Assembly (NCBI RefSeq): GCF_964204865.1 | Contig: NC_135253.1 | Coordinates: forward strand, 6,944,001-7,008,000 | Direction of reading: 5' to 3' | Source of the DNA: Styela clava | Taxonomy: Eukaryota | DNA length: 64,000 nt | Shown: positions 6,600-31,869 of the stretch, piece after piece | How positions within the stretch are numbered: position 1 is the first letter of the stretch | Layout of the letters: the number at the start of each line of letters is the position of its first letter | The notes under the pieces: model-generated | Database searches by the model: none | Told to the model about the DNA's origin: nothing | The model's input: only the letters and a program-made list of their open reading frames with translations | Position numbers and translations under genes: made by a program

Positions 6600-7242
6600 T
6601 AGCTGAAACAACAAAGGTTGTCGACGATTGTATGTATTGCAAATGTGTATTACGCGCATGCAATTGATCACGTTGTAGGTCGTAAGTATTCAAAACATTG
6701 AATTGAATTAAATTAGCAAATTAATTTAAAATTACAAAATAGGTATAGGTGAAGATGATAAATGTAATTGAGCTTCGTTTGTTTAATTAAGATGATTATT
6801 TAACCAAGTATTATATTCAAAACGTAAACTTTGATTCTCGGAAGCACGATACCTTCATTGCATGTGTAATATGAAAAGCGGCCGCAGTTGAGTACATGGG
6901 TGTACCAAACTGAGGCGCAACAAAACGTTTTTCCGACAAGGTCTATAATTTTAGTTGCAAAAAGGAAATATCAATCTTATTTAGATAAGATAAAGTTAAT
7001 CTTTTGGAAATCGATACTTAAAAAAAATACTTTGTTGAATTATATTTACAAATGATCTGGTACGCAATATTTGAGGCAACTTGTGGATTCGCATATATAT
7101 CGTAAAATAAGCCTTTTAATTTAAAACGTAACAAATTGCACTATTGATTGGGTAACTTCTGCACTGACTGTGTGAAATATGTAAGACAATAAGATCTGTG
7201 ATTCTCAGCACTAGAGTATGTCAGACATTTGAGCAGCGTTTG

Positions 7243-8082
7243 CTACTCTTTATGAAACATGATTGTATTTACTTCATAGATAACTTCAAGTTGAATTTCA
7301 TTGTCCTGTTTATCATTTAACTCCCATATCTCTTTTATTCGATTCATCATTTCATCCATAGGATCTTTGTCACGATTATTCATTGTTTTACGATATTCTC
7401 CGATTGTATCAAAATATCCTCTAAAAGTATGAAAAGTGTCATACTTGAAGAAAGTAATGTTTCCGACCCATCTCTTAGTAGGATTTGCCAGTTGATCAAA
7501 AATTGGTTCATATCTTTTTTCTACTAAACGATTTCGAGGATGAGCGTAAATTGCTTTAAAGAATACTCGTATTGCTTGACGATAGTCGTGCTCCAATGCT
7601 AAGATTCTTCCTGTATCCATATCGATAACTTCTTTATGTAAATATGCATATAACGCCACACAACAGTTACGTTTTAATACTCTCTCACATTCACTTTCAA
7701 ACAGAGTGATATCCAGCCAATGAGCAGCAGTTGCACAATTAACAAATTCAATGCTATTATCTGGAAGAGGAAACTTTCCACTGTTGACCAATTGAAATTG
7801 CACGTTTTTCTCATTATTCTTTTCAATTGCAACTGAAATCTGGCCAGCACTTATGTCTATTCCCAGTACGGACTCGAAATAAGGGAAAAACAGACATGTA
7901 GCCTGACCACCTCCGCAGCCTACATCCAACATTTTTCCCAATTTGGTAAATGGTGCAGAAGAATTAATTTGCAAATGTACCTCTTTCATAATTTTTTCTG
8001 CAACTTCTTGAGAGTAAGGCGGACGAAATTTGTCATAATCTTTTGCTAGATTCCTTGTTTCATAATACCCCAGCAATTCCAT
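7243..8082 (-). CDS. Class I SAM-dependent methyltransferase (Methyltransf_11/25 type, Tmt1/Crg1-like small-molecule MTase), copy 1
   Basis: Intronless 279-aa ORF from ATG 8082, which matches the start of copy 2. The track's start at 8112 is a TTG. Contains N-terminal A.DY.K.RP.Y, motif I MLDVGCGGGQ, post-I VLGIDIS, and FPLPDNSIEFVNCATAAHWLD. Confidence 0.92.
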   Translation of the reverse strand: MELLGYYETRNLAKDYDKFRPPYSQEVAEKIMKEVHLQINSSAPFTKLGKMLDVGCGGGQATCLFFPYFESVLGIDISAGQISVAIEKNNEKNVQFQLVNSGKFPLPDNSIEFVNCATAAHWLDITLFESECERVLKRNCCVALYAYLHKEVIDMDTGRILALEHDYRQAIRVFFKAIYAHPRNRLVEKRYEPIFDQLANPTKRWVGNITFFKYDTFHTFRGYFDTIGEYRKTMNNRDKDPMDEMMNRIKEIWELNDKQDNEIQLEVIYEVNTIMFHKE

Positions 8083-8818
8083 TATTACAAGAACAAATTT
8101 TCTATTGCTCAAAAATATACAGCGTATTTATTGTTTTGCATTCCTGATAAAATTTTTGTAAAGTATAATAACATATATATATCTGAGACGTAGCAAAACA
8201 CCTGAAAACAAACTGACTTTCTGTCAACTGTTTTATTTCAAATTTAATTTAATATAACTTTAAACCTTGAGAAGAAGGTAGACAATAGAACATTGAGTTG
8301 TTGTAATGCCAAATACTAAACAGATCTTGTCTAAATTTATAAAATAAAATTGTAACACGGAAATAAAGATAATCAACTTTAACAAGATCATTGATCAAAA
8401 ATTTACATCAGAGGTAAACCTACAACTAAGCTTTCACTTTGTTCACTGTATTTTTACCCCATAATTTACATATTGGTCCTTCGACAAATAATTGACTGAT
8501 TGACTTTGTAATCGTTCAGATTGTAATGAAAACCTAAATATTGTACTTTCTTTTTTGTGACAAATATACGTCTGTCATGAAAACGGCATTGATGTTTTAT
8601 TGGTGATGAACATTCAAGCCAAATTTTGAAAGTTATTTTATGTTGCTATTTGTGTGAATAGCATAGGCATAGAGGATCTTAGAAACGTTGACCGATGACA
8701 GAATGTCAGAATGTTTTATGAAAACAACGACATTTACATATTTTAGTAAAGGACAGCAATAAATAATATTATTTTGCATATAATGTTGCTAAAACCGATC
8801 CCGGAATATTACCTAATC

Positions 8819-9282
8819 CAGCGTTTCTTAAACTGTGTTCTGCGGAACACTGATATTCCGCGAGCTTTTTCGAAGTGCTCCGCGGGACAGGGATCGGAAT
8901 TGCGACTAAATTGGTGGCCATGGCGATCTCGGAATTACTGCGGCGCCTATTGGGTCGTAAATTTGTCTCCCAACTTTCGACAAGGCGAACAGTTCTTGCT
9001 ATCTAAAAGGCGGACAAGCCTCGTGCCAGTCTGGAAAGCGTGGTATTTTTGTCAACCGTTCATTATCGTTATTTAGAAACCATTTTGTGGAAACCATCCT
9101 TCTCAATAGACTGTTGGCTCAGAACTGCAAGCCTCAAAAGATGGCGCGTGATAAGCAGGTTGTGCAAGTTGATGCATAAAGTAAAATCAGTACACAATGT
9201 TTTATGATCAATTTTGCCTTCAGATTTCTTGGCGAGATAAAAAGCAATGGTGTTCCGGAGCCAAACAATTTGGGAAACGCTT
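8819..9282. mobile_element. hAT (Buster/Charlie-type) MITE in unit 2
   Basis: Ends CAGCGTTTCTTAAACT / TTTGGGAAACGCTT with 8-bp TSD-like flanks ACCTAATC / ATCTAGTC. Duplicated at 14766-15227. Its ends are related to 33638-34407. Confidence 0.8.
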
Positions 9283-10164
9283 ATCTAGTCCATTGTACAG
9301 CAGCATAACATATTTTTACCTCCAAATAAACGGTTTATATAAGAGTGAATTGTATGTTGCAAGTAATAAAAGTAAGTTACGCCAGAATAAGGCAAATAAA
9401 GGAATTGGAATATATTTGGAAACTATTCATTAAATAATTAATTATTCCAATTATAATTTGCTTAATTTTACCCTGCTCAAATTGAGATTACCCTAAATCC
9501 ATATTTATGAATTGAAGTTGGCTTTGAAAATGCGATAGTAATAACGTCGCTCACACTTTTGTATTATATCTGCAAATACAAAATACCATCCTATTTATCA
9601 ATAGTTTTTATAGTAAGCTACTGTATAGTAATTGCTCTTTACGGAAGATTGGTGCACGTCGTGCAATGTCATTTTCATTTTACGTGCATAAAATTGGTCA
9701 CGTGTAGGTCGTAAGCATGACAGCATGCACTAATTCAAAACATTAAATAAAATTAGGATTGCAAATTAATTTGAAATTTCAATATCGGTATAGATAAAGA
9801 TGATGACGGTAATTGCGCTTCGTTAGTTTAAGAAGATGAATAAATCAAATATTATATTCAAAACGTGAACTTTAATTCTCGGAAGCACGACACCTTCATT
9901 GCATGTGGAATGTGCACAGCATCTGCACTCTGCAGCAGGGTACATATGTACACCAAAGTGAGGCGCAACGAAAAGCTTTTCCGACAATGTCCACAATCTT
10001 AGTTGCAGAAAAGAAATTAATAATTTTATTTAAAAATTACCTTGTTGAATTATATTTACAAATGATCTGTTACGCAACATTTGTGGCAACTTGTGGAATC
10101 TCATATATATTGTAAAACAAACCTTTCATTTAAAAAGGAAGGAAATTGCACTACTGATCGGAAT

Positions 10165-11364: not shown

Positions 11365-13171
11365 TCTTACAAAAATTAAGCAGTGATGAATCTCTCGAAT
11401 AGAATATGAATTTTATTTCCTTATTGCATTGCTATATATTCGAATATTGACTGCGCTATTGAACCCCTGCCATCAGCATCAACTTTTCTTTGTGTTTCCA
11501 TTTGTCTAATTATAATTAAATTGTAGGCTCGTTAAACGAGTACCTGTTCAATAGAATTTTTAGGATATATATAATACAATTTAGTCCAAGCGTGTCTAAC
11601 GATAAATTCTGTTACGTATAAAAATGTAATTTACTCCTCGAGCGTAGATTATAAATGAAAAATTTTCATCGTCAAAACCGCTGTTTGGATGTTTCCCCGG
11701 GCATAGACTTCCTTGTTTACTTCGTGACATTGGTCAATCAGCAAGATGCAAAAAAACGTAACAATGCCCCCTTTCGCATCCGCTCAGACACATTCCTCAC
11801 TCAGACAGATTTTCAGGCGTGGTCGTGAACATTATCTCATTTTCGCGTTTTTGAATTATATTCGTTAGTTTTTAGTTGTTTTTCGGAAATTTAAACATAA
11901 ATCAAATAAGTCAATGATTACTTTGTCTTCCTATGAGTTTCAGTTTAAATACAGTAATCAAAAGTTAGTGTAGAAATAGCTGTGATAAACTAGGCTAAAA
12001 TTCTTTATCGGTACTTTTAAAAAACAGATTGTTGAATGGTGTGTATTAGAATGATAGTTTGAAACAAATACCCCATTTTACAGGCAACAACTCGCGAAAC
12101 CACTCTTAAAATAAGCACCGAAAATTTTAAAATGGTAAAGTATGGGAAGAATTTTCCGCGGTCAAAGGTCGCTGGAAGGTCCATTCAGTGAATCGTCCCG
12201 GGCCAGATTATTTTACTCAGGCCGTATTTTGCCGAACACTGGGATACGCAAACTACCGTTGCTTACTGCGAAGACGAGTCCAGAAATTCTCTCGCGTGTG
12301 ATAATCGCCCACGTGAGAACATAAAACAGGTTTCGCGAAATCGCCCAAGTTTTTCGCCCCCCTCTGTATCGTTTTTGCCCACTGGGGGGCGATATCGCCC
12401 AATTTGGGAATTCCTGTTCTAGACCATTGCACGACATACCATATATTTACCTCCGAATAAACGGTTCAAATAAGAGTGGATTGTATATTCCAATCAATAA
12501 AAGTATGAAGCAAATGAAGGAATTGGAATATATTTGGGAACGATTCATAAAATATTTAATTATTCCAAATATGATTTGCTTAATTTTACCCTGCACAATT
12601 TTTCCATGCAATTTTTTTTGTTGTAGGTCGTAAGCGTTCAAAACATTGAATTGAATTAAATTAGCAAATTAATTTGAAATTACAAAACAGGTATAGGTAA
12701 AGATGATAAAGGTAATTGAGCTTCGTTGGTTTAAGATGATTATTTAACCAAGTATTATATCCAAAACTTAAACTTTGATTCTCGGAAGCACGATCCCTTC
12801 ATTGCATGTGTAATATGAAAAGCGTCTGCAGTTAAGGTCATGGGTGTGCCAAACTGAGACGCAACAAAGGTCTATACTTTTAGTTGCAAAAAGGAAATAT
12901 TAATTCTATTTAGATAAGATAAAGTTAATCTTTTGGAAATCGATACTTAAAAAAAAAACTTTGTTGAATTATATTTACAAATGATCTGGTACGCAACATT
13001 TGAGGCAACTTGTGGATTCGCATATATATCGTAAAATAAACCTTTTAATTTAAAACGTATCAAATTGCACTATTGATTGAGTATATTCTGCGCTGACTAT
13101 GTGAAATAGGTAAGACAATAAGATCTGTGATTCTCAGTACTAGAGTATGTCAGACATTTGAGCAGCGTTTG

Positions 13172-14020
13172 CTACTCTTTATGAAACATGATTGTATTTA
13201 CTTCATAGATAACTTTAAGTTGAATTTCATTGTCCTGTTTATCATTTAACTCCCATATCTCTTTTAGTCGTTTCATCATTTCATCCAAAGGATCTTTGTC
13301 ACCTGTAACGCGATTATTCATTGTATTACGATATTCTCCGATTGTATCAAAATATCCTCTAAAAGTATGAAAAGTGTCATACTTGACGAAAGTAATGTTT
13401 TCGACCCATCTCTTAGTAGGATTTGCCAGTTGATCAAAAATTGGTTCATATCTTTTTTCTACTAAACGATTTCGAGGATGAGCGTAAATTGCTTCAAAGA
13501 ATATTCGTATTGCTTGACGATAGTCGTGCTCCAATGCTAACATTCTTCCTGTATCCATATCGATAACTTCTTTATGTAAATATGCATATAACGCCACACA
13601 ACCGTTACGTTTTAATACTCTCTCACATTCACTTTGAAACAGAGTGATATCCAACCAATGAGCAGCAGTTGCACAATTAACAAATTCAATGCTATTATCT
13701 GGAAGAGGAAACTTTCCACTGTTGACCAATTGAAATTGCACGTTTTTCCTAATATTTTTTTCAATTGCAACTGAAATCTGGCCAGCACTTATGTCTATTC
13801 CCAGTACGGACTCGAAATAAGGAGAAAACAGACATGTAGCTTGACCACCTCCGCAGCCTACATCCAACATTTTTCCCAATTTGGTAAATGGTGTAGAAGA
13901 ATGAATTTGCAAATGTACTTCTTTCATTATTTTTTCTGCAACTTCTTGAGAGTAAGACGGACGATATTTGTCATAGTCTTTTGCTAGGTTCCTTGTTTCA
14001 TAATATCTCAACAATTCCAT
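13172..14020 (-). CDS. Class I SAM-dependent methyltransferase, copy 2
   Basis: Intronless 282-aa ORF, highly similar to copy 1 with the same motifs. It has 3 extra residues (VTG) near the C-terminus. Confidence 0.92.
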   Translation of the reverse strand: MELLRYYETRNLAKDYDKYRPSYSQEVAEKIMKEVHLQIHSSTPFTKLGKMLDVGCGGGQATCLFSPYFESVLGIDISAGQISVAIEKNIRKNVQFQLVNSGKFPLPDNSIEFVNCATAAHWLDITLFQSECERVLKRNGCVALYAYLHKEVIDMDTGRMLALEHDYRQAIRIFFEAIYAHPRNRLVEKRYEPIFDQLANPTKRWVENITFVKYDTFHTFRGYFDTIGEYRNTMNNRVTGDKDPLDEMMKRLKEIWELNDKQDNEIQLKVIYEVNTIMFHKE

Positions 14021-14765
14021 TATTACAAGAACAAATTTTCTATTGCTGAAAAAGATACAGCGTATTTATTGTTTTGCATTCCTGGTAAAATTTTTGTAAA
14101 GTATAATAACATATATAAATCTAAGAAACCTGAAAACAAACTGGCTTCCTGTCAACTGTTTTATTTCAAATTTAATTTAATATAATTTTATAATAATTTT
14201 TTTAATATAAACCTTGAGAAGAAGGTAGACAATAGAACATTGAGTTGATGTAATGCCAAATACTAAACAGATCATGTCTAAATTTATAAAAAAAAATGAT
14301 AACACAGAAATCAAGATAATCAACTTTAACAAGATCATCGATCAAAAATTTACATCAGAGGTAAACCTACAACTACGCTTCCACTTTGTTCACTGTATTT
14401 TTACCCCATAATTTACATATTAGTCCTTCGACAAATAATTGACTGATTGACTTTGTAATATTTCAGATTGTAATGAAAACCTAAATATTGTACTTTCTTT
14501 TTTGTGACAAATATACATCTGTCATGAAAACGGCATTGGTGTTTTATTGGTGAAGAACATTCAAGCCAAATTTTGAAATTTATTTTATGTTGCTATTTGT
14601 GTGAATAGCATAGGCATAGAGGATCTTAGAAACGTTGACCGATGACAGAATGTCAGAATATTTTATGAAAACCACGACATTTACATATTTTAGTAAAGGA
14701 CAGCAATAAATAATATTATTGTGCATATAATGTTGCTAAAACCGATCCTGGAATATTACCTAGTC

Positions 14766-15227
14766 CAGCGTTTCTTAAACTGTGTTCTGCGGAACACTGA
14801 TATTCCGCGAGGTTTTTCGAAGTGCTCCGTGGGACAGGGATCGGAATTGCGACTAAATTGGTGGCCATGGCGGTATCGGAATTACTGCGGCGCCTATTGG
14901 GTCGTAAATTTGTCTCCCAACTTTCGACAAGGCGAACAGTTCTTGCTATCTAAAAGGCGGACAAGCCTCGTGCCAGTCTGGGAAGCATGGTATTTTTGTC
15001 AACCGTTTATTATCGTTATTTAGAAACCATTTTGTGGAAACCATCCTTCTCAATAGACTGTTGGCTCAGAACTGCAAGCCTCAAAAGATGGCGTGATAAG
15101 CAGGTTGTGCAAGTTGATGCATAAAGTAAATTCATTACACAATTTTCTATCATCAATTTTGCCTCCAAATTTCTTGGCGAGATAAAAAGCAATGATGTTC
15201 CGGAGCCAAACAATCTGGGAAACGCTT
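14766..15227. mobile_element. hAT MITE in unit 4 (segmental duplicate of 8819-9282)
   Basis: Same ends and interior as 8819-9282, with flanks ACCTAGTC / ATCTAGTC. Confidence 0.8.
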
Positions 15228-16230
15228 ATCTAGTCCATTGCACAGCAGCATAACATATTTTTACCTCCGAATAAACGGTTTATATAAGAGTGAATTGTAT
15301 GTTGCAAGTAATAAAAGTAAGTTACGCCAGAATGAGGCAAATAAAGGAATTAGAAAATATTTGGAAACTATCCATTAAATAATTAATTATTCCAATTATA
15401 ATTTGCTCAATTTTACCCTGCTCAAATTGAGATTATCGTAAGTCCATATTTATGAATTGGAGTTGGCTTTGAAAATGCGATGTTAATAACATCGCTCACA
15501 TTTTTGTATTATATCTGCAAATACAAAATACCAATTCTATTTATCAATAGTTTTTATAGTAGGCTACTGTATAGTAATTGCTCTTAACGGAAGAATGGTG
15601 TACGTTCAAAGCTGGCTTGAAACAAAGGTTCATTTTACGTGCATAAAATTGGTCACGTGTAGGTCGTAAGCATGACAGCTTCCACTAATTCAAACATTAA
15701 TTAAAATTAAGATTGCAAATTAATTTCAAATTTCAATATCGGTATAGATAAAGATGATGAAGGTACTTGCGCTTCGTTAGTTTAATAAGATGAATTAATC
15801 AAATATTATATTCAAAACGTAAACATTGTTTTTTGGAAGCACGACACCTTCATTGCATGTGGAATGTGCAAAGCGTCTGTACTCTGCAGCAAGGTGCATA
15901 TGTGCACCAAAGTGAGGCGCAACGAAAAGCTTTTCCGACAATGTCCACAAAAGAAATTAATAATCTTATTTAGATGGGATTAAACAATCTTTTGAACATA
16001 GATACTTGAAATAAAAATTACTTTGTTGAATTATATTTACAAATGATCTGTTACGCAACATTTGTGGCAACTTGTGGATCCCCATATATATTGTAAAACA
16101 AACCTTTCATTTTAAAAAGTATGAAATTGCACTACTGATCGAGTAAAGTCTGCGTCAACTATAAATAGATGAGACAATAACAATATTGATTCTCAGTATT
16201 AGAGTATGTCAGACATTTGAGCAGAGTTGG

Positions 16231-17003
16231 CTACTCTTTATGAAACATGATTGTATTTACTTCATAAATAACTTTAAGTTGAATTTCATTATCCTGTTTA
16301 TCATTTAACTCCCATATCTCTTCTAGTCGATTCATCATTTCATCCAAAGGATCTTTGTCACCTGTAACGCGATCGTATCAAAAAATCCTCTAAAAGTATT
16401 AAAAGTGTCATACTTGACGAAAGTAATGTTTTCGACCCATCAAGTAGTAGGATTTGCCTTAGTAGGATTTGCCAGTTGATCAAAAATTGGTTCATATCTT
16501 TTTTCTACTAAACGATTTCGAGGATGAGCGTAAATTGCTTTAAAGAATACTCGTATTGCTTGACGATAGTCGTGCTCCGATGCTAATATTCTTCCTGTAT
16601 CCATATCGATAACTTCTTTATGTAAATATGCATATGACGCCACACAACCGTTACGTTTTAATACTCTTTCACACTCATTTCAAACAGAGTGACATCCAAC
16701 CAATGAGCAGCAGTTGCACAATTAACAAATTCAATGCTATTATCCGGAAGAGGAAACTTTCCACTGTTGACCAATTGAAATTGCACTTTTTCATATTATT
16801 ATTTCCAATTGCAACTAAAATCTGGCCAGCACTTGCACACATGTCTATTCCCAGTACGGTCTCGAAATAGGGAGAAAACAGACATATAGCCTGACCACCT
16901 CCGCAGCCTACATCCAACATTTTCCCCAATTTGGTAAATGGTGCAGAAGAATGAATTTGCAAATGTACTTCTTTCATGATTTTTTTCTGCAACTTTCTGA
17001 GAC
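16231..17003 (-). pseudogene. Methyltransferase copy 3, pseudogene
   Basis: Colinear with copies 1 and 2 but 5'-truncated at ~17003, with no start region. Has an insertion/frameshift near 16835, a local duplication of AGTAGGATTTGCC near 16445-16473 and a deletion near 16373. Confidence 0.88.
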
Positions 17004-18600: not shown

Positions 18601-21600
18601 CAATCTGTCAGCAGTTTATAATATACCCGGCCAAAGATTGTGCTAGCTAACTGATTTCTTTTATGAAAACACTTTGCGGAAACGGATGAACCGACGGTAT
18701 ATCGACGACAATCGAGTAACTCAGTTTAGAACTAATATTCAGGATGGAAGCAGATGCACGATACTTTGTGTTGTTTCTAGTATATATAAATTTATATTCA
18801 ACAAAAGGTATGTATATACATTTTGTGATGTAAATAAATTGCGTCAATTCCATATTCAAGAGCTAAAAGTATAGAAAATAGAAAGCCAGAATAAGGTAGA
18901 TTTTACTATGTTTTGTAAATATCTACTATCTATTGATAATTCAGGATTTTCTCGAGGTTAATATTCTTTTTCTTGTTTATTCAGGTGACAAAGCGCAGCT
19001 AGTCATTGATGCAATCAACCTTGACTCGGCCACCATTCTCTCGTTGCTTCCTGACTTTTCCGATGATTTTGTCATTGATCTAAATATAAATCCCAACGAC
19101 GAACAGGAGATGATATATGGAATAAACATTCTCGATGGCGAAGGAATCATTGACAAGGTTGTGTGGCAAAATATTTATTATTAGAATAGATAAACTTGAA
19201 ATACGAATATTTCCCGGTGTAAGGATAGTTCAATTATTACTTTCTTATTATTTAACTTATACAGAATAGTAGAAAAAAGAGTGTGTTACATGGGCAGAGA
19301 TAAAAGAATGTATTTATTTATCCTGTAATCACACAAACTTGAAAAGCACTTCAGTTTTAAATTCAAAAGTACTGTTTTAGTAAACAAAATATAATATTGA
19401 TACTCTTTTTTTAGTCATGGATAATAGATCGACATGAATTAATATCATGCACTTGCAAATTGTGAGTAATATATATTATTAAGATCATTTTTGTAGATTT
19501 TGTATTAAGATCGGCTTAAAACTGCAGTTCCTAATTTGCATTGATTTGAATCTGGCAACTTGAAATGCCCATTCGAACTCACACAAGTCTAATTGATTAA
19601 TTTGGGAGAGCGTTACGCAATCGAATTAAATAATAATCATAATTTTCGGTATCAACCATATTTAATGAATGCGTCAACAAAAAGTTTTTAATCCTAATAG
19701 ATGATTTCTAAATTATTTATATTACGATTTATATCTAATACGGTATGAATTTAATGATCTATGAAGCTATCACATATTCACGCAGCCTTTTTTTCACTTT
19801 AGTTATCCAAAAGATGCTGAAATAGCTTTCATGATAGACGGTCCGCCGCATTTGGATGTATTATGGTTTTCAAATCATGACAGAGATGACGACATTGTCA
19901 CATCAAGAGTAGGGTATTTATTATTACGCATGAATGGATGTTTCTCATTAGAGCATTAACGTTCGGTTTTATGCTGAAATGGGCCACGCACTGAGTATCT
20001 TGGGGAAAACCTGTAGTTATTCTGTATTTTCTAAACAAAAATGCCCTTTGACCTCACATTATTCTTTTCATTCAAACTTTTTTCCCTGTTCAATCCGTAA
20101 TTACTTCATGAACTGAGCTTTTTGTCAATAATTTTGCGAGAAATCAAAAAAGAATGATTCATAAAACTTTATGTTTTATTGGCTGATGAAATCATTTAAT
20201 AGGGCCAATAAAAATGTTCCGTGAGTACATCATTCGTGTTGTCAACATCGCCAATATGAATTCATAAACACAATTAAAGTCAGTAAATTTCTATTTTAGC
20301 GAAAATCAAAAAATCATCAATGAAGCTTAGTTATAGATATTACATTGCATATAGTATAACCATTATATTATACGTGGTGTACGCAGAGTTTCATATCCCT
20401 GGCGAGAAGTTACATGTGACACTCTAAAAAGTAATATTATAGCGAAAATATATTTAGTTGATCGTCTCCACATCTTTGTTTTATTTTCAATTTACTTTTT
20501 GTCAGGTTTACGGATTTGTCCCGCAGGATGAATTTATGGCCAATTCTGTGGTGCTACACACATCTGAAAGCGAAACAACATTTGGGGAATGTGATATGAA
20601 GTATTTTGTCGCACAATTCCATGGTTTCCCCCATACAATGGTCAACATCAATTTCTATGCGTACAACCGCCTTGTAAGTAAATAATTTAGAAAACAGTAT
20701 AATTATTCCATCAAATGTTTTTATTTTGTAATATGTATATTTGGTATGTAGGAGTAATTCCCTTTAGATATCTTTTGGAAATATATTGCACTTCTAAATG
20801 ACTTCAGTCACTACTTCTATTTTGTTTTGCAATTGGTCTATTCCGACAACTAGGTATGCCAAGGCTGCTGCCATTAAAGCACCAACCGTACCATCCGCTA
20901 TTATTCAGGTCCAGTAGTCAAAAGTGTAGAATTCTGCTGCCATACCTCTATTACCTATTTGTAATGAAAACTTTTTGTGATAGAGCTCAAATGTTATTCT
21001 GCCTGACCGATGGGAAAACGAAGCTTTTTATGATGGTTTTTTTGATGGAATATACTTGGTTGAAAGTCTTGCTTCTGGCGCTCCAAAAAATGTCATGTTT
21101 GGCTATTCTGCGGCTTCTGAGTAAGTTCACTTTTCTGTAGATGTTTTGCTTTTTCAAAGAACTGTTCGCAAACATTTTTAAAATTGATTTTTTATTATTT
21201 TTTTTTTTTTTTATAATAACCAAGTTCTTGTTATATTTATTTTTTATTTTTCTAACTGTTGTTTTTTAGAATAAATGGGAATCTATTTTCTGACACCGAC
21301 ATTCAAAATTACATGAACGCACTATTAGAAAAGATGTGTCCCATAATTTCCCAAGGTATGCTGTTTCGGGTATTTATTGTTGTTCATCTAAACAAGTATC
21401 CTGTAAGAAATATTTTTCATTTTTAAATACTCCCAATAAATCAAAAGTCTATTAAAATTGATATTATTATATAGATTAGTTATGATGCGATTTATTAATC
21501 TTCCACCCGGCAAAGGATATAGCTTTATACGAGACTTTATTAACCAGCAAAACAATGCTAATAACCATTATCATTCCCGGAAAATATTTAAGAAGTCGCA

Positions 21601-24600
21601 TTAATTCATTGTTCATTTTGATTTTTTCTTCTTTTAATTAATATATTTGTATTTTTTTTGTGAGATCTCGGATGCTGTGAAAATGGCAAGATGACTGCAT
21701 ATTTTTGTCCAGATAAAAGGATTTGCAAATGTAATCCCGGATGGACTGGTGCTTGCTGTGATACAGGTAAGTGGCCTATTTTATTGTTTGCATGAATCAT
21801 AGTCATGAAGTTGCGATTTATTTAACTTCGATCAAGATCAAAAGGTCAGGCTTATCAAAATTATACTTTAGAATGTATAAATGGCGAAGAAATTTACTTG
21901 CCACCGTATGGAACATCTACTTGTAAGTGTGATAATGGCTGGGGAGGACAATCTTGCACTGAAGGTATTTCTTCTATTATTTGACGTTGTAATCATTTTT
22001 GGACACGAAATGAACCTATAGAGATCGATTTGTTATTATGGGGTTGTCGTGGTTAGTATTATTCTTTTTCTTGTTGTTATGAAAAATCTCTTTTTTTTTA
22101 ATTACTTTAGATATTACTTTGAAATTTCCAGTGGTTGAAGATTTTTGTTGTCGCTAGAGGGCGACTTTTGTATGCGCTGTGAAAATTGTTTGTTCTTGTG
22201 TCCAAGTTTGCGATCGTTATAATCTGTTGGTCTACTCCAGTTAAAGTTGTAAAGATTACCGTACCGATAGTGTGGAATATTTTATACCAGTACTTCTTTT
22301 TGTTTGACACCGTGCCATATATTTTATTAGGTTGTAATATTGAAAATTAAGCAGTGGACTGCCGTCTCATTTACATGTTCAAACAAAAAGTGCAGGAATA
22401 ATTGTTCAAAAACTTCATTATATTTTTCTAGCAAACCATCTTTCAATTTTTTTCAATGAGTTCAATTCAAAATCTCCAGTGTGTGGATCGTTTATAACTC
22501 ATCATAAATCGTATTCATATGACTTTAGCAACCAAAACCTTATAAGTTTTTATCTACCTGGTGGTTATCAAATGATAGAAATGCACGACGTGAGTATATT
22601 CAAATTGTCGATTGATTCTAAAGCCATTGTAATTTTTTGTTTCATAAGCGAATATGACGTGACACCGAAAATTGCAAATAGCGTTTTTTTTTTTTATACC
22701 AGACGAATAAATATTTTGCATTTGTTTTTGTGATTGTAAACTTTGATAGTTTTTGTCCAAGTATTATTACGCAAACATAACGGACAAGAATTTAACATAT
22801 TGTTCAAGTCAAGAATACCATATAATTTAGGTTGTATTATCATATCAAAAACACTTTCGGTATTTCTAATTCCACAAATATTTAATGCTCCATATTTCTG
22901 GCTTTGTTGATAGCGAATGGCGACGATGCAGAGAAAAAAAATTATTAGCTGTTTCAGCAATCGTTCTATGTTTATTTTATTAGTATTTTTTTAATAAATT
23001 TATTAACAATTTATTTGATATATTCAGCCAAGTATCTTCGTAGAACTAGGCAGCTTTGAAGAACACAATGAAAATAATCATCATCATATTTTGGACGATT
23101 GCGTTACTTGTGGACTTAGAGAGAATTCCGGAAAGTATGCAGATCTCATTGATTTACGAACATAAAACAATTGAATAACAATACTAAATTAACGTTATGA
23201 CATGGCATATACATTGAGTGAAAATTGTCTAAATTTTTAATGTCCGCAAAGATGACAAAAAATAATTGAGTACCAAAAAGTCGAATAAACATAAACTTTT
23301 AACATGATAAAAAAATTATCTTTTAGTTTGCTAGGGGTAGATTGGAAAGCGGGATTTGATAATGATTTTACTGTAGTAGGATGGATTGCAAATGATGAAA
23401 TGGACTGGGATATATTTGGTCTTGATGTGAGTATCATTTTTGAAATAAAGAATCTAAAACATTACTGCATGATTTGTTTTTAATAAATATATAGCATTTT
23501 ATATCACTGTAATATTATAGTACAAAAAACTTATAAAAATGTATAATCCTTTTTCATACATGATAAATTTGCATTTGCGGCAACTACTTCATAATTAAAA
23601 TTTGACGTGGTAAATTTGATGTAAAAATGAATCTGATTTATCGTTAGAGAATGTTGTGCAGCAGCCTTATTCCCATTCGAATTTTTTCAGGCGTATATTG
23701 GGATACCAGACTTCTATGACAGCGATTCGACATTAACCGGGGATAAAACAGTTGATGATTGCAGAATGGTGTACAAGTTATTACAGAGGTTTTCCTCATT
23801 TGCACCTGGAACGACTGTAGAAATATATTTCACCGCAGGAGATGTGCGGGTTAGTTGAATATAAAGTATTTTTCATAGTCACGAGAAATAGCCAGTCCGT
23901 TTTCTTTTCTATACAGTCTATACAAATAGGCAATATTTTACGACATGCAGGCCTTACCAAGTTGTCAATCGGGTGTGTTATAAAACTCGTGTAATTTTTT
24001 TTTAAGCAAGATGTGTACGTACCTATGGATCGTTCTGTAGCTGTGGTAAACCGAATGATTTCAGATTTGCAGTTTTCAAAGTTTGATCAAGTTAATAAAA
24101 GTCACCAATTTTTTGCTGAACTTTTAACTAAATGAGAACACTTTTTATTCCGTATTGGTCGAACGCCTCATTATTGCTTGCCGCCAAGCTTATCAGAAAA
24201 TTTTTTCTCGGTTTCAACGGTAGTGGAACTAATGTGCGATCGTCAAATATTTATGAATTGAACATTTGTTTGACGTGTTGTTTTTTGCTGGTCTATGAAT
24301 ACCTGTTTGTATTTGAATTCATTTATTGAAAATAATACTTTATCATTATTTTTGTTTCAAATCAATATACCCGGGAAATAAGGTATTCGAATTTACATAT
24401 GAACCTTAAAACAAACTCTTGAATTTTCAATAAAACTTCTGAAAAGAGTCACATTCAATATAATCAAACGAATTCATCCATGTAATATTTAGTACTCGAG
24501 AATGCCTACGGATCAAACCGCTCGGACCGAGATGCTTGACGGTGGATGTCTATGTTTTTCCAGCGAATTTTTTACAGAGTATTTTATCAATGGATCTCCT

Positions 24601-26179
24601 GCTAACGTCATGATAGGATACTTTCTTGCAGTAAGGTACGTATTCCAATTGCATATCAATGATTGGATATTCTAATAACTACCTTTTGATAACTCATCAT
24701 AAATTGTCGATTTATTACAAAAATTTAATTTTTAATGAATGTTAAATAAAATGAGTTCAAAAGGCACAACCACTTCAAAGTAAAATTCCGACTTGAAAAA
24801 AAAATACATCGAGTGATTAGACAGAATTAGATATATACAGTATATATAAACCAGAATAACAACATAATAGTAATAATAATAATGAAAAAACATGTACACT
24901 TCGGGTCTGAAAATAGCGGGTATTTTTTTAAATAATCAATTTTTCAACTTTGAGCAATCGTAATTTTCAAATCCCTAAAAGCTCAGCAATATTTGTGCTA
25001 AGGCACATCTCAAATTTTTTATCATTTTCAGCTTTGACGATCAAAACTTTGATCCGTATGAGATACCAGATGAAGAGTTGATGAACGTTATCGATTGTTT
25101 GATGGAATCAGTCTGTTCAGTCGTGTCACGAAGTATGCATAAATAAATTCATAAACATAATACAAACAAAATTTCACTGAGTAGGTGATAGTGTTATTGA
25201 AACTATAACTGGCATATATATGCAATTTCTAATTCACTGAAATTTATCTTATATCGACGAGCATACCGTGTATTTATTTATCAACTTGCCTGCGATTGAG
25301 AAATGGACATTAAGACAAAGTATAGGAACGTTGGAGTTCTCTTAATACCTGAAATAACCCTTCAGAAGGAAATTGTCGTGATTGAATTGCATATGATACT
25401 ATTGATTTTGTGCAAGAAATCAAATAATAATTGTATCAATTGTCAAGTTTCCAGATATGTTTGGAATTTAAGCATTCTAGAAAAGACATATATCACTCAT
25501 CCGTTAGATGTAGGTTTTTAGCCTACAAATTCAAATCAGTCACGAAAATTAATATTCTATATTTGGTTATATAATTCGTATTACAAGATATGCATAGGTT
25601 AGATTTCAAAAATTTAAACCATAAAATAGGATGCATTCATGGCACACTGACGGGAACCAGTGGAACCGCATTGGAATGCGTATGCTCGCCTGGATGGATC
25701 GGCGTCCATTGTGATTTACGTAAGTGATAAAGATTATGTTCTACATAATTTCAAGTGATGCGATGCGCTAGTTTGTGTTCAAATGAAGCAACGCTGTTTT
25801 TAAACCAATCTAATATTGAGTTCATTGCTAAACCAGCTAATTTGCTGCTTATTTCACCTATATTATTTTCGCAGAAATCATCTAATTATAGGACAGTTTT
25901 TCAGTAATTTTCGAAATGTTGTTTGCACTCTTTTAATCCAGTTATTATGGCTGGCTTAATATTTTTATTGATAATTAACAACTAAAACTGGGTTTATTAA
26001 TAACGCTATGCTAAAACGCAATAGTGAACTGAACGTAGTAAGTTATGCTTAAATATGTCATGCAATAAACCTCGGCTATGTTATTGCCCTCTGTTTCTTT
26101 GTAACCCGACATCAAGCAATCTCAAGCCATATCATAATATTGTGAGAATCTTTTTTCAAACTATGTTTCAGCTTGCTAA
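18601..26179 (+). CDS. Multi-exon gene, likely extracellular: two copies of an unrecognised ~240-250-aa module, each followed by EGF-like repeats (5' end unresolved, possibly partly pseudogenised)
   Basis: Phase-compatible exon chain of ~590 codons: 18985-19157, 19415-19461, 19803-19908, 20506-20673, 20984-21120, 21270-21355, 21665-21766 (EGF, CKCNPGWTGACC), 21872-21964 (EGF, CKCDNGWGGQSC), 22480-22589, 23028-23134, 23327-23426, 23691-23849, 24007-24045, 24493-24635, 25032-25132, 25630-25719 (EGF, CVCSPGWIGVHC), 26172-26179 (PC*). Candidate exons 18601-18779 and 22111-22260 contain in-frame stops. Confidence 0.7.
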
Positions 26180-27753
26180 CTTCTCATTGTCGATGCGTCA
26201 GAAAAAGGAATCCTGAGGAGGAATTGAATATGATTAATTATATCTGATTACATGGTATCTTAGACAAATAAATATACATCACTTCAAAAATGCCATTTAT
26301 TCGAGTTGATAGAAAAATATCGTTTAAATTAAAGTTCGAATACGCCATAAATTGAATGTTCCTATGTTGAATAATGGGAGGAATAAATATAGGAAAATTC
26401 GAATATTTGTCTCTATGGAATTTCATGGGCTTGCAGATAAATTTTACTTGCAAACTAATGGATGTTATGAAAGCGAACAAATGCTTATTCATCTTTGAAG
26501 AGAAAGGAAACAATAAATAAATCATAACTGCCTGTCGATCAGACATCGAGTAATTTGAACTTTAGTTATTATGACGTTATCTGTGGTACGAGGTACGAGG
26601 TAGGTAACCTTTGTAAACAGACAAATATAGGAGTTGGGCTGTTTCGTAGCCCCAGGATTCATCAACATTTATCAGATCGAACGCGCATTTTTAAAATGGA
26701 CCTTATAATCAGGTGTCATAATCAAGTGTGGTGTCAATTTGGAGATCAAATGAAAAGATGTACAACTGTACTTATCAGGTTACCAAGTCAGACAGTTACT
26801 AGCATTAGTAATTTAAAACAACGGAAATAACTCAATTATATAATTTTGTACAAAGCAGAATGCATAATATGCTCTGGGTTCGTAACGTTTTGAAATATTG
26901 TACACGTAAAATACTTGCAAGCGTGACTGTCTGGTTATAGAAATTTTATTTTAGTATTATTTACTTAAGTCTAATTGACAAATATAAAAAAGAGAACATT
27001 GATATTCACTACTCTTGTGTGTGGATAAGCGAAAAAATCTAATGATCTGATGCGTGTAATATACTACTGTATATATTTAAGAAGTAATTATATCAAACAA
27101 CTATACCACATAATTGCGAAACTATCTTTTGTATAGTGCTGTTGTACTTTTTGATTACAATATATTTTTAGTTAAACTCATATGAACGATCAAATGTGTA
27201 CTTGCTTTGAACGAAATGTCAAATTAAAGGAATGTGATTACATTTTGAAGAGTACGAGTAAACCAAATTACCATACCTCATGCTGCTATTTGCATATAAA
27301 TATATGTATACTGTATTATTACAGTACGTAAGTAATGATACTAGCCTCGCTGTAAGCCTAATATTAGCCTAATAATCCCCCGAACTTGTATTATTATATT
27401 GTCCTTGATCAATATATCAAGCATTGATTTTATTAATGCATAATCAAACTGAAGAAGATGCTTGTTTCAAACTCACTCGAAAACAATTGATGGGACGCTA
27501 CAGATGTTAAAACTATTTGAATATTTTCACGATTTTCGTATTGAAGAGAACGTTGAGTGATATTTTTAGTTTGATTATAAATGATATTAAATTTCAATTT
27601 GATAAATCAAATAATGAAAAAATTATATTTAATTTTGTACAACTTTCAACTTATTTGATTAAATTATACTTCATTTGTTGTGAATTCTTTGCTCACGTGT
27701 ACTGTATAATAACTTGTAACAAATATGCGTTATGAATACAGATATTAGCTCTA

Positions 27754-29702
27754 ATGTCGAGACTAAACGGAAACGCATGGATAGTATGTGCCGTTTTGTT
27801 ATATCTTATGTTTCCTACAACAACAAAAGCTGGTGAGTCGAGCATTCATTCTAATCTTTATTTCTCTTTACTGTGCGAGCACGATTTTTGTCATGCTCAA
27901 TCTTCAGAGTGCCTAAAATGCCTATAGTTTTGATTGGAATCATGTTGTTAAATATCCAACAATAAGCTAACCTACGTTCCTAAAACAAAAAAGTTTGAAT
28001 GTTTCATGTAGCACATTTTCACATTTTTTAATAAATATATACAATAAACCTCATTATACTAGTCTAAAGCAGCGGTTACCAAACTATGGGTCGCGACCCA
28101 CTGGTGGGTCGCAAAAAGAATTTTAGTGGGTCGTGAAAAGATGTAGAAAGCTTTGATTAATAATACTGGAGATTAGGATCGGTATACGTAAATCGACTCG
28201 AATACGTAAATCTTCAAAAAAACATAAATTGAATATAAATTCTAATCTGTGAAAGTTTCCGTCTTACGATCTTCTCAAAGGAACAAAAATTTGCTATACA
28301 AAGAATGACCATGTGGCTTTTTTACGCATAGTAGTTTTGTACACGGTACAGCACTTTTTACCGTGTTTCCCCGAAATTTAGACAGGATTTAGATTTATTT
28401 TTGAAGAATAACACTATGTTTTATTTTGGAAGAGGTCTTTTGTGTTCATTTATCAAAAATAAAATTACACTGTAGAAAATCACGAGATTTTTAATAAACA
28501 TTATATAAAAAGCACATTTTAAATTTATTTTAGGGATATGGTTTAATTATAATCATTTTTAAAATTCAAATTAGGTCTTATTTTCAGGCCAGGTCTTATT
28601 TTCGAGGAAACACGGTAGTTTTGCGATGATTAGTCATTATTGTGTTCTGTGTTATGTCATCAAAAGTTAAATGGGTCGCCATAAGCTGTGGTAATAAAAA
28701 GTGGGTCCCAACTCTTAAAAGTTCGGGAACCACTGGTCTAGAGTATTTCAAATTTCCTATCATCTTTCATTCGTTACCATTATTCGGCATCGTCGGCATT
28801 ATTCGGAACTGCAATCTGTAGGCAAGCTCTATAGATAATAACTGCAAAAAATATTAGTTTTTTTGTAATATTACACTTTAAAAGTACCATTTGATTGTTC
28901 ACAAAAGTGACTACCAGATTGAAAATAATACAGTTAATTTGCATTATCAGGCTGGTGGTGTTCAATCTTCGAAAACAAATGTGATGAAGTTCCTAAAATA
29001 TGTGAAAGTTGCGGATTTATAAATATAATAGGTATATTTGCACTTTTTATGTACTGAAGTTATTTCTATTTCTATTTCTGGTTAAATGTTATAACACAAC
29101 AACCCGTTATGGTACGAAAATTGTCTGATACCTCACTGCATTAAAAAAAACATACTAATCTGACCTTAATCGGCTAGATTGCTGTATGTCATTGCAATAA
29201 GGAATAAATACATCTTAGTATTAATTCTTGTAAATAAAATTATTCATTTTTTGCTCACCTACAATTACTAATATATTCTATAATTCATTTAAATGAGTCT
29301 TAAAATACTGCATAAAAATATCCGACGTTTTTATTCATCACAGCTTTATATTTATATGACTTCTGCGATTTAAAATTATAAACTATTCAAGATATTTTTA
29401 CCACATATATAATCATATACACAACAAGTCATAGAGGTTTGGTATCTTTTCGCTTAAATAGGTGCTCCGCATTGACCCGTTACAAAAGTAATACGGAAAA
29501 ATATTTTTTTAAAGACTGCTCAGACTTTGACTGCACTGACAAAAAAGAAAGTGGGTTTTGTAACGGCTATTTCGGACGATATTATTATGACGAGAAAGAC
29601 AAACAGTGCAAAGACTTTATATATGGAGGATGTCTAGGAACTAAGAATCGTTTCAAAACGAAAAAAGATTGTGAGAAATGTTGCGTGATCAAAGACGATT
29701 GA
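27754..29702 (+). CDS. KuB: secreted Kunitz protein with N-terminal 4-Cys segment (P1 Asn)
   Basis: Exons 27754-27832 (MSRLNGNAWIVCAVLLYLMFPTTTKA), 28951-29031 (GWWCSIFENKCDEVPKICESCGFINII) and 29515-29702 (DCSDFDCTDKKESGFCNGYFGRYYY...YGGCLGTKNRFKTKKDCEKCCVIKDD*). Introns are phase 1. Confidence 0.82.
28070..28735. mobile_element. hAT (Buster/Charlie-type) MITE in KuB intron 1, with a nested element
   Basis: TIRs CAGCGGTTACCAAACT / AGTTCGGGAACCACTG, TSD GTCTAAAG / GTCTAGAG. A second copy lies at 61437-62229. Confidence 0.85.
28361..28615. mobile_element. Nested Tc1/mariner-superfamily (Tc2/pogo-like) MITE
   Basis: TA-CCGTGTTTCCCCGAAA ... TTTCGAGGAAACACGG-TA, with repeated AGGTCTTATTTT subterminal motifs. 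Confidence 0.8.
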
Positions 29703-30756: not shown

Positions 30757-31869
30757 TTACGGGCATTCTTTTTTGCATTTTTCTTCAGTCTCAAAGTTAT
30801 TGTTGTTTCCCTCGCAACCTCCGTAAGTAAATTTTTCACATTCACAAGTTTCTTTGTTGAAGTACCATCTTTCGAACGCCGCATCGCATGGTCCCGGATC
30901 AGCTGACTTATAGCATTTTGCTGAAATCCCATAAATAACATATTTAATTGCATTTGGCAATTACATTACGGGGGCTACTATGTCATGAATATCGTAAATC
31001 AAAATGAAAATTCTTTGCTTTACTTTTATTCAATATTATTGAAGATTTTACAAAATAATTCGTAAATGTGGTGGAAGCGATTATCGTGAAATGATGGCGG
31101 AAACTGAAGGAACTTCAACTACATGAAAATTTGAACATAACACATATCAATGGCATATATTTTATTCGGAAATTAATTTTAAAACATCTATCAAAATCAG
31201 TATAGCATAATATGATACAAAATTAAAATATTTTAGAACTTACCTTGACATAGGTACGGGCAAATCCAAGGTTCCAGAAATAGGAAACAAAGATATTGTG
31301 TGCGACAGACTGCAATATTGAAAAATAAAATAGGATCATACAGCTTAAAATATTAGTATTTTTTTACCTATTTTTTCTTCAATATGTGAGATGCTCTGTT
31401 TTCATTTATATTAAAAAAAAAAATTAGAAATCTAGAAGCAAATAACTTTTTTATTGGTAGATCGTGTAGAATGCAGGCAGTAATAAATCCGATATATCCA
31501 ATATTAAAAAAAATCTGCACAAAAACGTGATCAATTTTTAATATTAGTTCACGACTTTCTCACTAATAAAGTTAACTGATTATGCGTGGTTTATACACGG
31601 ATCATATTCATAATAAAATAATACGAAATATTTTATTTTATTAACCAGCAGTAAAATAATATGATCGTTTCGTTTGACTTAAATACTTCGAACAGTCAAA
31701 AAATGCGGAACAATACATGTCAAGATTTAGTACATTGGTCTTGAAGTTTCAAAGATGATGAATATCACTTACTTTTACATTGAAAATCTTTAATGTTAAA
31801 CGTCGCTCCCGTAGACTGACCTACAATCATTAACAGAACTATGAAGCTTGTGAATTTCCTCACTTCCAT
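30757..31869 (-). CDS. KuC: secreted mini-Cys-module + Kunitz protein (P1 Asp)
   Basis: Exons 31869-31773 (MEVRKFTSFIVLLMIVGQSTGATFNIKDFQCK), 31309-31244 (ICRTQYLCFLFLEPWICPYLCQ) and 30920-30757 (AKCYKSADPGPCDAAFERWYFNKETCECEKFTYGGCEGNNNNF...CKKECP*). Introns are GT-AG, phase 1. Confidence 0.88.

Follow-up and report, generated by a model that had tools for sequence, protein, structure and literature searches.

Positions 18601 to 26179 (+ strand) of the window, by which we mean the whole 64,000-nucleotide stretch of Styela clava DNA analysed here, carry two runs of exons that resemble one another, and the question is what they encode and whether they form one gene or two. The original prediction could not assign the repeated module to any known family. 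We found instead that, as judged by sequence and exon structure, the gene is a homologue of fuhc-sec of Botryllus schlosseri, a candidate histocompatibility ligand proposed to serve colonial sea squirts in telling self from non-self. That ligand role is its authors' own hypothesis; passages of PMC12065747 and PMC12582321 describe the protein as secreted and propose that role. The best explanation, which we hold with reasonable confidence, is that the locus belongs to the fuhc-sec family as a divergent member in a solitary ascidian, likely a single 17-exon gene with a 613-aa product.

A phmmer search of 1.84 billion proteins returned six matches at E ≤ 0.001, namely the protein itself, two S. 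clava paralogues, two EGF-repeat proteins and, at E = 1.5e-10, P0006 (UniRef100_Q2XWP5, 'Histocompatibility ligand secreted form', B. schlosseri). The joined 613-aa model matches P0006 at E = 1e-24, with 23% identity over 412 columns. With the EGF units removed and profiles built from the three homologues only, module 2 was recovered at E = 3.2e-13 and module 1 at E = 1.4e-6 in a set of eight sequences, and hhalign scored the 3' half at 99.6% and the 5' half at 60.6% (E = 8e-5). Module-level matches among the 1.84 billion proteins are confined to two styelid ascidians, in keeping with the lineage-specific protein originally proposed; a word-based alignment search returned P0005 alone, because EGF words crowded the candidates, and the range of the family in other ascidians is undersampled. 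Fuhc genes in Styela are not reported in the literature searched; the authors of a 2025 review mention comparative work in preparation, and part of what follows may be known to them or printed beyond that literature.

All features of the gene model lie on the + strand. Exon 1 (18601..18807) is the first coding exon and ends in phase 1; it holds ATG 18744, the start shared with P0003, upstream of which lie in-frame stops, and 18601-18743 is presumed to be 5' UTR. Module 1 is encoded by exon 2 (18985..19157, phase 1-0, identical to P0003), exon 3 (19415..19461, phase 0-2, with a CxC pair found in none of the paralogues), exon 4 (19803..19908, phase 2-0, where PHLDVLWFSNHDR corresponds to PYIHVAYFNNSDR of Botryllus), exon 5 (20506..20673, phase 0-0, with conserved C159, Y163 and Q167), exon 6 (20984..21120, phase 0-2, with conserved G226) and exon 7 (21270..21355, phase 2-1, the C-terminal helix). 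Two EGF-like units follow in exons 8 (21665..21766) and 9 (21872..21964), both of phase 1-1. Module 2 then occupies exon 10 (22432..22589, phase 1-0), exon 11 (23028..23134, phase 0-2, with a CxxC pair), exon 12 (23327..23426, phase 2-0), exon 13 (23691..23849, phase 0-0, with conserved C471, Y475 and Q479), exon 14 (24493..24635, phase 0-2) and exon 15 (25032..25132, phase 2-1, again the C-terminal helix). A third EGF-like unit lies in exon 16 (25630..25719, phase 1-1), the length of which fits record 3 of contig X1, and exon 17 (26172..26362, covered over 26172-26362 by the same record) supplies the last codons, a stop ending at 26179 and the 3' UTR, with AATAAA at 26267 and 26382. All 17 exons are open and have canonical donors. 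The splicing of exons 10-17 is shown by contigs judged to be spliced from their GT-AG joints, the source records not being labelled RNA; joints were recovered for exons 11 to 15, and that of 22589-23028 in four of four runs.

Much of the layout originally predicted is borne out. Both runs have the phase order 1-0, 0-2, 2-0, 0-0, 0-2, 2-1 and then 1-1 for the EGF exon, and 12 of its 13 motifs lie on the + strand within 18601-26179, the 13th (HCDLPC) spanning the last splice joint. The tandem modules with EGF units stand, with corrections of detail: module 1 has about 239 aa and two EGF exons after it, module 2 about 256 aa and one. The additional 39-nt 0-0 exon placed in the second repeat (24007..24045, +) proved to be intronic: contigs join 23849 to 24493 in three of four runs, the fourth being without cover there, and the exon is missing from RefSeq P0001 and P0002 and from all five full paralogues. 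With it removed the gene has 17 exons (the exon 7-8 joint being inferred), equal to the number given for Botryllus fuhc-sec in a passage of PMC3691228. For all five landmarks published for Botryllus, the matching exon or boundary of the present gene bears the same number; the Botryllus exon-2, exon-3, exon-9 and exon-10 primers map to exons 2, 3, 9 and 10, and exon 14 ends in the same alignment column as its Botryllus counterpart. The two proteins share a signal-like start, the lack of a transmembrane segment, the order module-EGF-EGF-module-EGF and about 20% identity from end to end. They differ in size (613 aa versus 555 aa in Botryllus), and the present gene differs further in its extra cysteine pairs and loops, a much clearer internal repeat, a weak intron-7 acceptor, a location not adjoining fuhc-tm or HSP40L, and a solitary host.

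Whether there is one gene or two turns on the joint between exons 7 and 8. RefSeq treats the halves as two loci, split at exactly this joint, so that the possibility of two separate genes raised with the original prediction has a counterpart in the annotation; homology, however, argues for one gene. The paralogues and Botryllus hold both modules in a single chain, exon 8 starts at the homologous position, and P0002, whose RefSeq start is the internal ATG 21691 of exon 8, lacks a signal peptide, its first residues falling within an EGF domain. Exon 7 would thus probably be spliced to exon 8 to give one chain, and the split annotation can be put down to low coverage. In the contigs of the four runs no transcript crosses exons 7-8 and no joint within exons 1-9 is among those listed; the missing cover of exons 1-7 weighs neither way. 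The acceptor of exon 8 is an unusual GAG, as opposed to TAG or CAG in five of five paralogues, and G at -3 occurs in only one of 77 paralogue acceptors. A split or decaying copy could therefore be envisaged, in which the GAG acceptor is bypassed to yield a secreted single module of 261 aa (stop 21479) and a signal-less 3' transcript: a competing TAG acceptor in intron 7 (21475..21479, +) would give the inferred product ending ...SQD-stop, which is the ending of P0003, the spliced contigs are restricted to the 3' half, one X4 contig is unspliced across intron 7 (21551-21706), and P0001, one named record of the 3' half, is frameshifted. We regard this as improbable. None of the 17 exons is broken, the X1 contig has no frameshift, neither AATAAA nor ATTAAA occurs between 21479 and 21665, and fragment records exist at the paralogue loci too (P0004, P0010 and P0014); moreover, cysteines and family residues are preserved in the 3' half, although a product lacking a signal would have no need of them.

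Taken as one gene, the order of parts is signal, module, EGF, EGF, module, EGF, and the 613-aa product is predicted to be secreted. Residues 1-21 resemble a signal peptide, with a hydrophobic core at residues 7-18 (11-residue hydropathy of 2.2), and the first exon, like that of the paralogues, ends in phase 1. No transmembrane segment was found in the whole chain, the best 19-residue hydropathy being 1.36, and the chain ends in an EGF unit; in both respects, extracellular appearance and want of a membrane anchor, the original reading holds. Two central EGF-like domains are present, as in fuhc-sec. Pfam PF23106 is matched above its cut-off by exon 16 (E = 1.7e-5) and by P0002 (E = 3.5e-8, 33.8 bits against 24.3). 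The units are alike to Pfam EGF-like domains (PF23106 EGF_Teneurin, PF21700 EGF_DL_JAG) in the C-terminal CxC..GW.G..C half but differ from standard ones in being short, in the reduced cysteine set of units 2 and 3, and in having no calcium-binding motif.

The genome holds five further full copies, all annotated as uncharacterized: LOC120327291 (P0005) at C4 17.55 and 17.76 Mb, and three copies of LOC120333070 (P0009) at C17 10.05-10.13 Mb, both loci having the same architecture and intron phases. All 15 intron phases of the present gene equal those of two paralogues, and 11 of 15 positions agree within two alignment columns. At intron 6 the model of the C17 10.05 Mb paralogue shows a phase of 0, which the boundary script probably produced in error. 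The paralogues are 41-89% identical among themselves; Botryllus is 24-27% identical to these other Styela copies, and the present gene 20-22% identical to all others, searches of the genome with its two halves finding no second close copy. A single fuhc-tm-like gene was found (C4 17.77-17.78 Mb); it is arranged head to head with the 17.76-Mb copy, beside a DnaJ/ZHD/C2H2 gene at 17.786 Mb that is HSP40L-like, whereas no fuhc-tm match occurs in the 64-kb window. Because there are five more copies, and because this cluster is 10.8 Mb away on the same chromosome, the present gene is probably an early-branching paralogue and not the ligand orthologue; the linkage to fuhc-tm and HSP40L expected of the fuhc-sec orthologue (the fuhc-L ligand gene) is lacking here. 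In the module trees, from which two incomplete C17 duplicates and one incomplete copy at C4 17.737 Mb were left out, it is the first branch in both halves. Tests of trees that group it with the Styela copies were borderline (P-AU = 0.073 and 0.049, with long branches and the C17 10.11-Mb copy also omitted). It would seem rather likely that its lineage separated from those of the other fuhc-sec copies before the divergence of Botryllus and Styela.

We found that module 1 and module 2 match each other at E = 2e-10 by BLASTP, with 45 of 168 residues identical (27%), and that none of 2000 shuffles reaches their score (z = 13.3; with the 39-nt exon left out, z = 13.4 and 0 of 200), which confirms the residual similarity of a tandem duplication claimed earlier. 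The likeness might nonetheless be recent rather than ancestral, if this paralogue is specific to Styela and evolves fast, and if re-duplication or partial homogenisation has affected its modules. Its module 1 is nearer to its own module 2 (score 124, z = 13.4) than to any other module 1 (58 or less), the corresponding likeness elsewhere is z = 0.2 and 2.6 in paralogues and 6.6 in Botryllus, a cysteine pair is common to both its modules and missing in the others, and a tree holding the two together is not rejected (P-AU = 0.165, in the same reduced set). Against this, the module-1 profile favours its module 1 and the module-2 profile its module 2, unconstrained trees separate the two kinds at 95/90 and 83/89, and its module 1 retains the module-1 motif of exon 4; we consider a recent origin of the likeness doubtful. 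The gene shows that members of the fuhc-sec family consist of an unnamed domain present in duplicate.

Each module is predicted to fold as a large beta-sandwich of antiparallel strands that a C-terminal helix closes, from models of pLDDT 49 and 64, the better being that of a paralogue's module 2; the disulfide-bonded EGF pair would space the two lobes. As originally stated, the module has no Pfam family: none was found for the 11 non-EGF exons of 14 scanned, nor for P0003 at E ≤ 10. Searches of the PDB by sequence gave noise only for P0003 and EGF matches only for the profile, and the ESM Atlas gave EGF-driven rows below 0.9 for P0001 and no usable match for module 1. Nor did the suggested fold searches reveal a clear solved fold: for neither model did Foldseek return a PDB chain at E ≤ 0.001, and the best structural matches were Z = 7.1 (rmsd 4.3, 156 aligned) and, for the other model, Z = 6.2 (rmsd 7.6). 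One row from a viral structure library (E = 3.3e-4, rmsd 16) was not trusted. The domains first named as possible matches, vWA-type or lectin, were found neither by motif nor by Pfam. A vWA domain has the MIDAS motif DxSxS and an alternating beta-alpha fold; the present protein has no DxSxS, no Pfam vWA match, and predicted runs of strands with terminal helices. C-type lectins are marked by WIGL, EPN/QPD and WND, none of which occurs in it or in three homologues, and Pfam gave no match. No Ig, vWA or lectin chain is among the structural matches listed, a listing which does not exclude them. An Ig domain is stated for FuHC-sec in the 2025 review; neither the present protein nor P0006 has a Pfam Ig match, and the predicted models are of middling quality.

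By analogy with Botryllus, the product is likely a recognition ligand retained at the cell surface rather than an enzyme. Haemocytes or vessel epithelium may secrete it, a membrane partner hold it at the surface, and receptors read its two wide sheet faces during recognition by haemocytes or tissues, a scheme to which we give a little less than an even chance. S. clava, being solitary, does not form colonies, and the secreted protein could instead bind glycans or belong to a matrix (tunic or mucus), its module being a carbohydrate-binding supersandwich and allorecognition a later co-option in botryllids. The top structural rows of both models are enriched for the beta-supersandwich and linker helix of glycoside phosphorylases and hydrolases (GH94, GH65, GH116, heparinase), a fold which we take to be galactose-mutarotase-like. 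The N-terminal domains of GH94/GH65/GH116 (5h3z, 7w2t, 2cqs, 7fe3) likewise have a helix after a large antiparallel sheet (Z = 5.7-7.1 over 156-167 residues), with rmsd 4.3-5.1 and 6-10% identity. Such Z values, being under 8, lie within the background of the tool, and no catalytic domain follows in the present protein. A common fold proves no function, and another copy has retained the linked fuhc-tm and HSP40L-like genes at its side; we think the glycan-binding or matrix role unlikely. It concerns function only and leaves the family assignment unaffected.

These results suggest that the fuhc-sec family is older than colony fusion. Invertebrate allorecognition genes are described as lacking conservation between phyla, and the fuhc ligand region has been described for botryllids. 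More speculatively, the fuhc-sec/fuhc-tm/HSP40L core may predate colony fusion, in a solitary styelid ancestor, FuHC-sec being a two-lobed protein made of one duplicated unnamed beta-sandwich, the present gene its earliest-branching paralogue with the ancestral symmetry preserved, and the at least six Styela copies serving self/non-self recognition by haemocytes. A solitary styelid with fuhc-sec and fuhc-tm homologues and a linked HSP40L-like gene makes the co-option of an older recognition system by colony fusion testable; the divergent copy corrects the domain picture of FuHC-sec to two copies of one module, the borders of which can be used in expression and structure work and in mapping polymorphic residues.

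That this gene itself encodes the true allorecognition ligand at work in S. clava, and is subject to balancing selection as fuhc-sec is, strikes us as very improbable: a better orthologue exists in the copy next to fuhc-tm and HSP40L, and the same picture would arise from relaxed selection or from a paralogue that is missing. Features expected of the fuhc-L ligand gene are extreme allelic polymorphism under selection, expression in ampullae and blood cells, and alleles that predict fusion or rejection. What points towards it comes from one contig of one study, the divergent one of four: in record 12 of X3, 23 of 525 exon bases (4.4%) are different, as against 1/556, 1/508 and 0/245 for X1, X2 and X4. 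In the part of the differences that was listed, 14 sites touch 12 codons, of which 8 are non-synonymous, and the species heterozygosity given in a passage of PMC7540406 is about 1.72%.

We found that P0002, the RefSeq protein covering the 3' half of the gene at 18601-26362 (+), has six phmmer matches at E<=0.001 among 1.84 billion proteins: P0002 itself, two Styela clava paralogues, the Botryllus schlosseri 'Histocompatibility ligand secreted form' (FuHC-sec) and two EGF-repeat proteins. Module profiles built from three homologues, with the target left out, match both target module 2 (E = 3.2e-13) and module 1 (E = 1.4e-6); thus the family match is more than EGF-driven. Each profile prefers the target module of the same number. 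The original prediction held that the module could not be assigned to a known family; phmmer and the profiles now place it with the Botryllus secreted ligand. In the 5' half, PHLDVLWFSNHDR aligns with PYIHVAYFNNSDR. Four published Botryllus primers named by exon, in the article portions available, map to target exons 2, 3, 9 and 10. The end of exon 14 as published (from the junction of P0015 with P0006, the Botryllus FuHC-sec protein) falls in the alignment column of target intron 14. Between the target and two paralogues, intron phases are equal at 15 of 15 introns, with 11 of the 15 positions within two alignment columns. Identity is 20-22% between the target and all other family members and 24-27% between Botryllus and the other Styela copies.

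The claimed duplication holds: the two exon runs resemble each other more than chance allows (E = 2e-10, with 45/168 residues identical and the score reached in 0 of 2000 shuffles), 12 of the 13 motifs first quoted lie on the + strand in their place, and a comparison of the RefSeq halves with one another gives E = 2e-9. In the target the repeat stands out clearly (module 1 versus module 2, z = 13.4); it is less marked in Botryllus (6.6) and can hardly be seen in the paralogues (0.2 and 2.6); module-1 and module-2 profiles still match one another (hhalign 59%, E = 9e-5). Separate-module trees part module 1 from module 2 (support 95/90 and 83/89) with the target as first branch on both sides; the trees have long branches, and the alternatives that hold its two modules together (p-AU = 0.165) or group it with Styela copies (0.073 and 0.049) are not firmly rejected. 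The available portions of PMC7344649, PMC12065747, PMC3691228, PMC12582321, PMC11507803, PMC7540406 and PMC5882950 do not describe an internal duplication of FuHC-sec.

Fold models cover module 2, in P0002 (AlphaFold2, pLDDT 49, pTM 0.56) and in the paralogue fragment P0010 (pLDDT 64, pTM 0.70), and both predict long antiparallel strands, then one helix ahead of the EGF unit. Across 14 of 14 modules a Cys and a Gly never vary, and a Tyr and a Gln are present in 13; these residues fall in predicted strands and look structural and not catalytic. Foldseek with both models found no PDB chain at E<=0.001. In a wide structure search the top matches, N-terminal supersandwich domains of glycoside phosphorylases/hydrolases (Z 7.1, rmsd 4.3, 156 aligned), lie within background. 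The vWA and C-type lectin identities were rejected, their motifs being absent.

The window is AT-rich eukaryotic DNA (C4:6,944,001-7,008,000; genome 377 Mb), and the target exons were reconstructed from splice sites. Spliced contigs from four runs of a single study give GT-AG joints at 22589-23028 (4/4 runs) and at 23134-23327, 23426-23691, 23849-24493 and 24635-25032 (3/4 runs each). They skip the extra 39-nt exon proposed for repeat 2, joining 23849 to 24493; once it is left out, 17 exons with 613 codons make up the gene. The length of a 916-nt contig is accounted for exactly by exons 11-17 and a portion of exon 10. A 1041-nt contig extends 127 nt beyond the 5' edge of exon 10 and holds an exon-9 variant, which makes it probable that exon 9 is joined to exon 10 as well. 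One contig differs by 4.4% in the coding exons, and among the listed sites the changes are mostly non-synonymous; we take this as no more than a hint.

With no mismatches, target residues 1-260 are those of P0003 (LOC120325861) and residues 270-613 those of P0002 (LOC120326943); intron 7 is therefore where RefSeq divides the gene. Exon 8 is preceded by a GAG acceptor, the corresponding site is TAG or CAG in all five paralogues, and among 77 acceptors of the paralogues one carries G at -3. Use of a TAG acceptor at 21475 would yield the D-stop ending of P0003, and none of the joints listed for the contigs of the four runs (exons 10-15) spans exons 7-8. We nevertheless consider a single chain across exons 7-8 probable, because P0002 lacks a signal peptide and starts within an EGF unit, and because all full homologues have both modules; that the target is a split or decaying copy seems improbable. 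In P0001, the older of the two records for the 3' half, exon 14 carries a frameshift, while the newer P0002 and a contig of run X1 are in frame; the shift is an assembly error or a null allele.

Searches of the Styela clava genome with the paralogues P0005 and P0009 located fuhc-sec-like copies on C4 at 17.55, 17.74 (partial) and 17.76 Mb and on C17 at 10.05-10.13 Mb, five paralogues being modelled as full open genes. The C17 copies form a tandem array (C17:10,051,000-10,125,100) of three full genes that share 80-82% identity, plus two partial duplicates comprising first and last exons; C4 has a further full copy at 17.55 Mb and a partial one at 17.737 Mb. Botryllus fuhc-tm (P0016) has a single match region in the genome (C4 17.775-17.779 Mb, matching over 5 exons at 35-59%, the best with E = 9.7e-12), within a gene at about 17.774-17.782 Mb, head to head with the 17.76-Mb fuhc-sec-like copy; in Botryllus the two are in tandem. 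About 4 kb past it, on the far side of a WD40 gene, is a DnaJ-ZHD-C2H2 gene with no introns. The cluster thus spans some 25 kb (C4:17,762,388-17,787,759): fuhc-sec-like (-), fuhc-tm-like (+), an intronless WD40 gene, which we take to be RBBP5-like, and an intronless DNAJC21/HSP40L-like gene. DnaJ-ZHD-C2H2 is the HSP40L architecture, described in the available text as 8 kb from fuhc-tm in Botryllus (PMC12065747), and GMP synthase is named as a boundary gene of the Botryllus locus (PMC11507803). Because fuhc-sec-like, fuhc-tm-like and HSP40L-like genes lie close together, and GMP synthase also lies on C4 (10.9 Mb), C4 carries a fuhc-L-like cluster. The target, surrounded by Kunitz genes, is 10.8 Mb away and fuhc-tm has no match within the 64-kb window; it is therefore a paralogue, not the syntenic orthologue. 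Long open frames adjoining a fuhc-sec-like copy (L026:9624-6900, -; C4 about 17.752-17.755 Mb) are presumably gag-pol retroelement-like.

The target is a real feature; of most value is that a solitary species carries this family together with the linked cluster. Searches of the openly accessible literature found no paper describing fuhc genes for Styela or for any other ascidian that is solitary; a 2025 review, in its available part, cites comparative work in preparation. As predicted, the protein appears extracellular, having a signal-like start and no membrane anchor, together with paired cysteines and EGF spacers. According to the accessible portions of PMC12065747, PMC12582321 and PMC3691228, mammalian cells secrete Botryllus FuHC-sec, its expression is seen in ampullae and blood cells, it can form a surface pair with FuHC-tm, and the proposal is that it shows many epitopes to fester/FcoR receptors. 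Tentatively, the Styela protein may likewise be secreted as a two-lobed ligand and then be held at the cell surface, where receptors would read it; a glycan-binding or matrix protein is a less likely reading of the same secreted, EGF-spaced chain. A partly available review mentions that tunics of Styela plicata fuse, with a specificity that is uncertain, and refers to a study on histocompatibility reactions in that species (PMC7344649).

Nine Kunitz-type motifs were found in the window by motif scan, at 1873-2191 and 29517-29699 (+) and at 30760-30960, 35144, 39643-39804, 51049, 56354-56533 and 63018-63200 (-); all six scanned pass Pfam PF00014. A tandem segmental duplication (6657-10160, 12605-16141 and 15688-17002) is 92% identical over 3.6 kb, with a third copy of 1.3 kb, and each segment holds an LDVGCGGG exon on the - strand (about 7929, 13867 and 16917), presumably methyltransferase-like; Pfam gave no match at E<=0.001 for the one such exon scanned. 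The Kunitz gene at 27756-29702 begins in a signal-like way and is matched by spliced contigs, and its first intron contains a repeat (28063-28700; copy at 61430-61873) that very many contigs match and that is probably a short mobile element.
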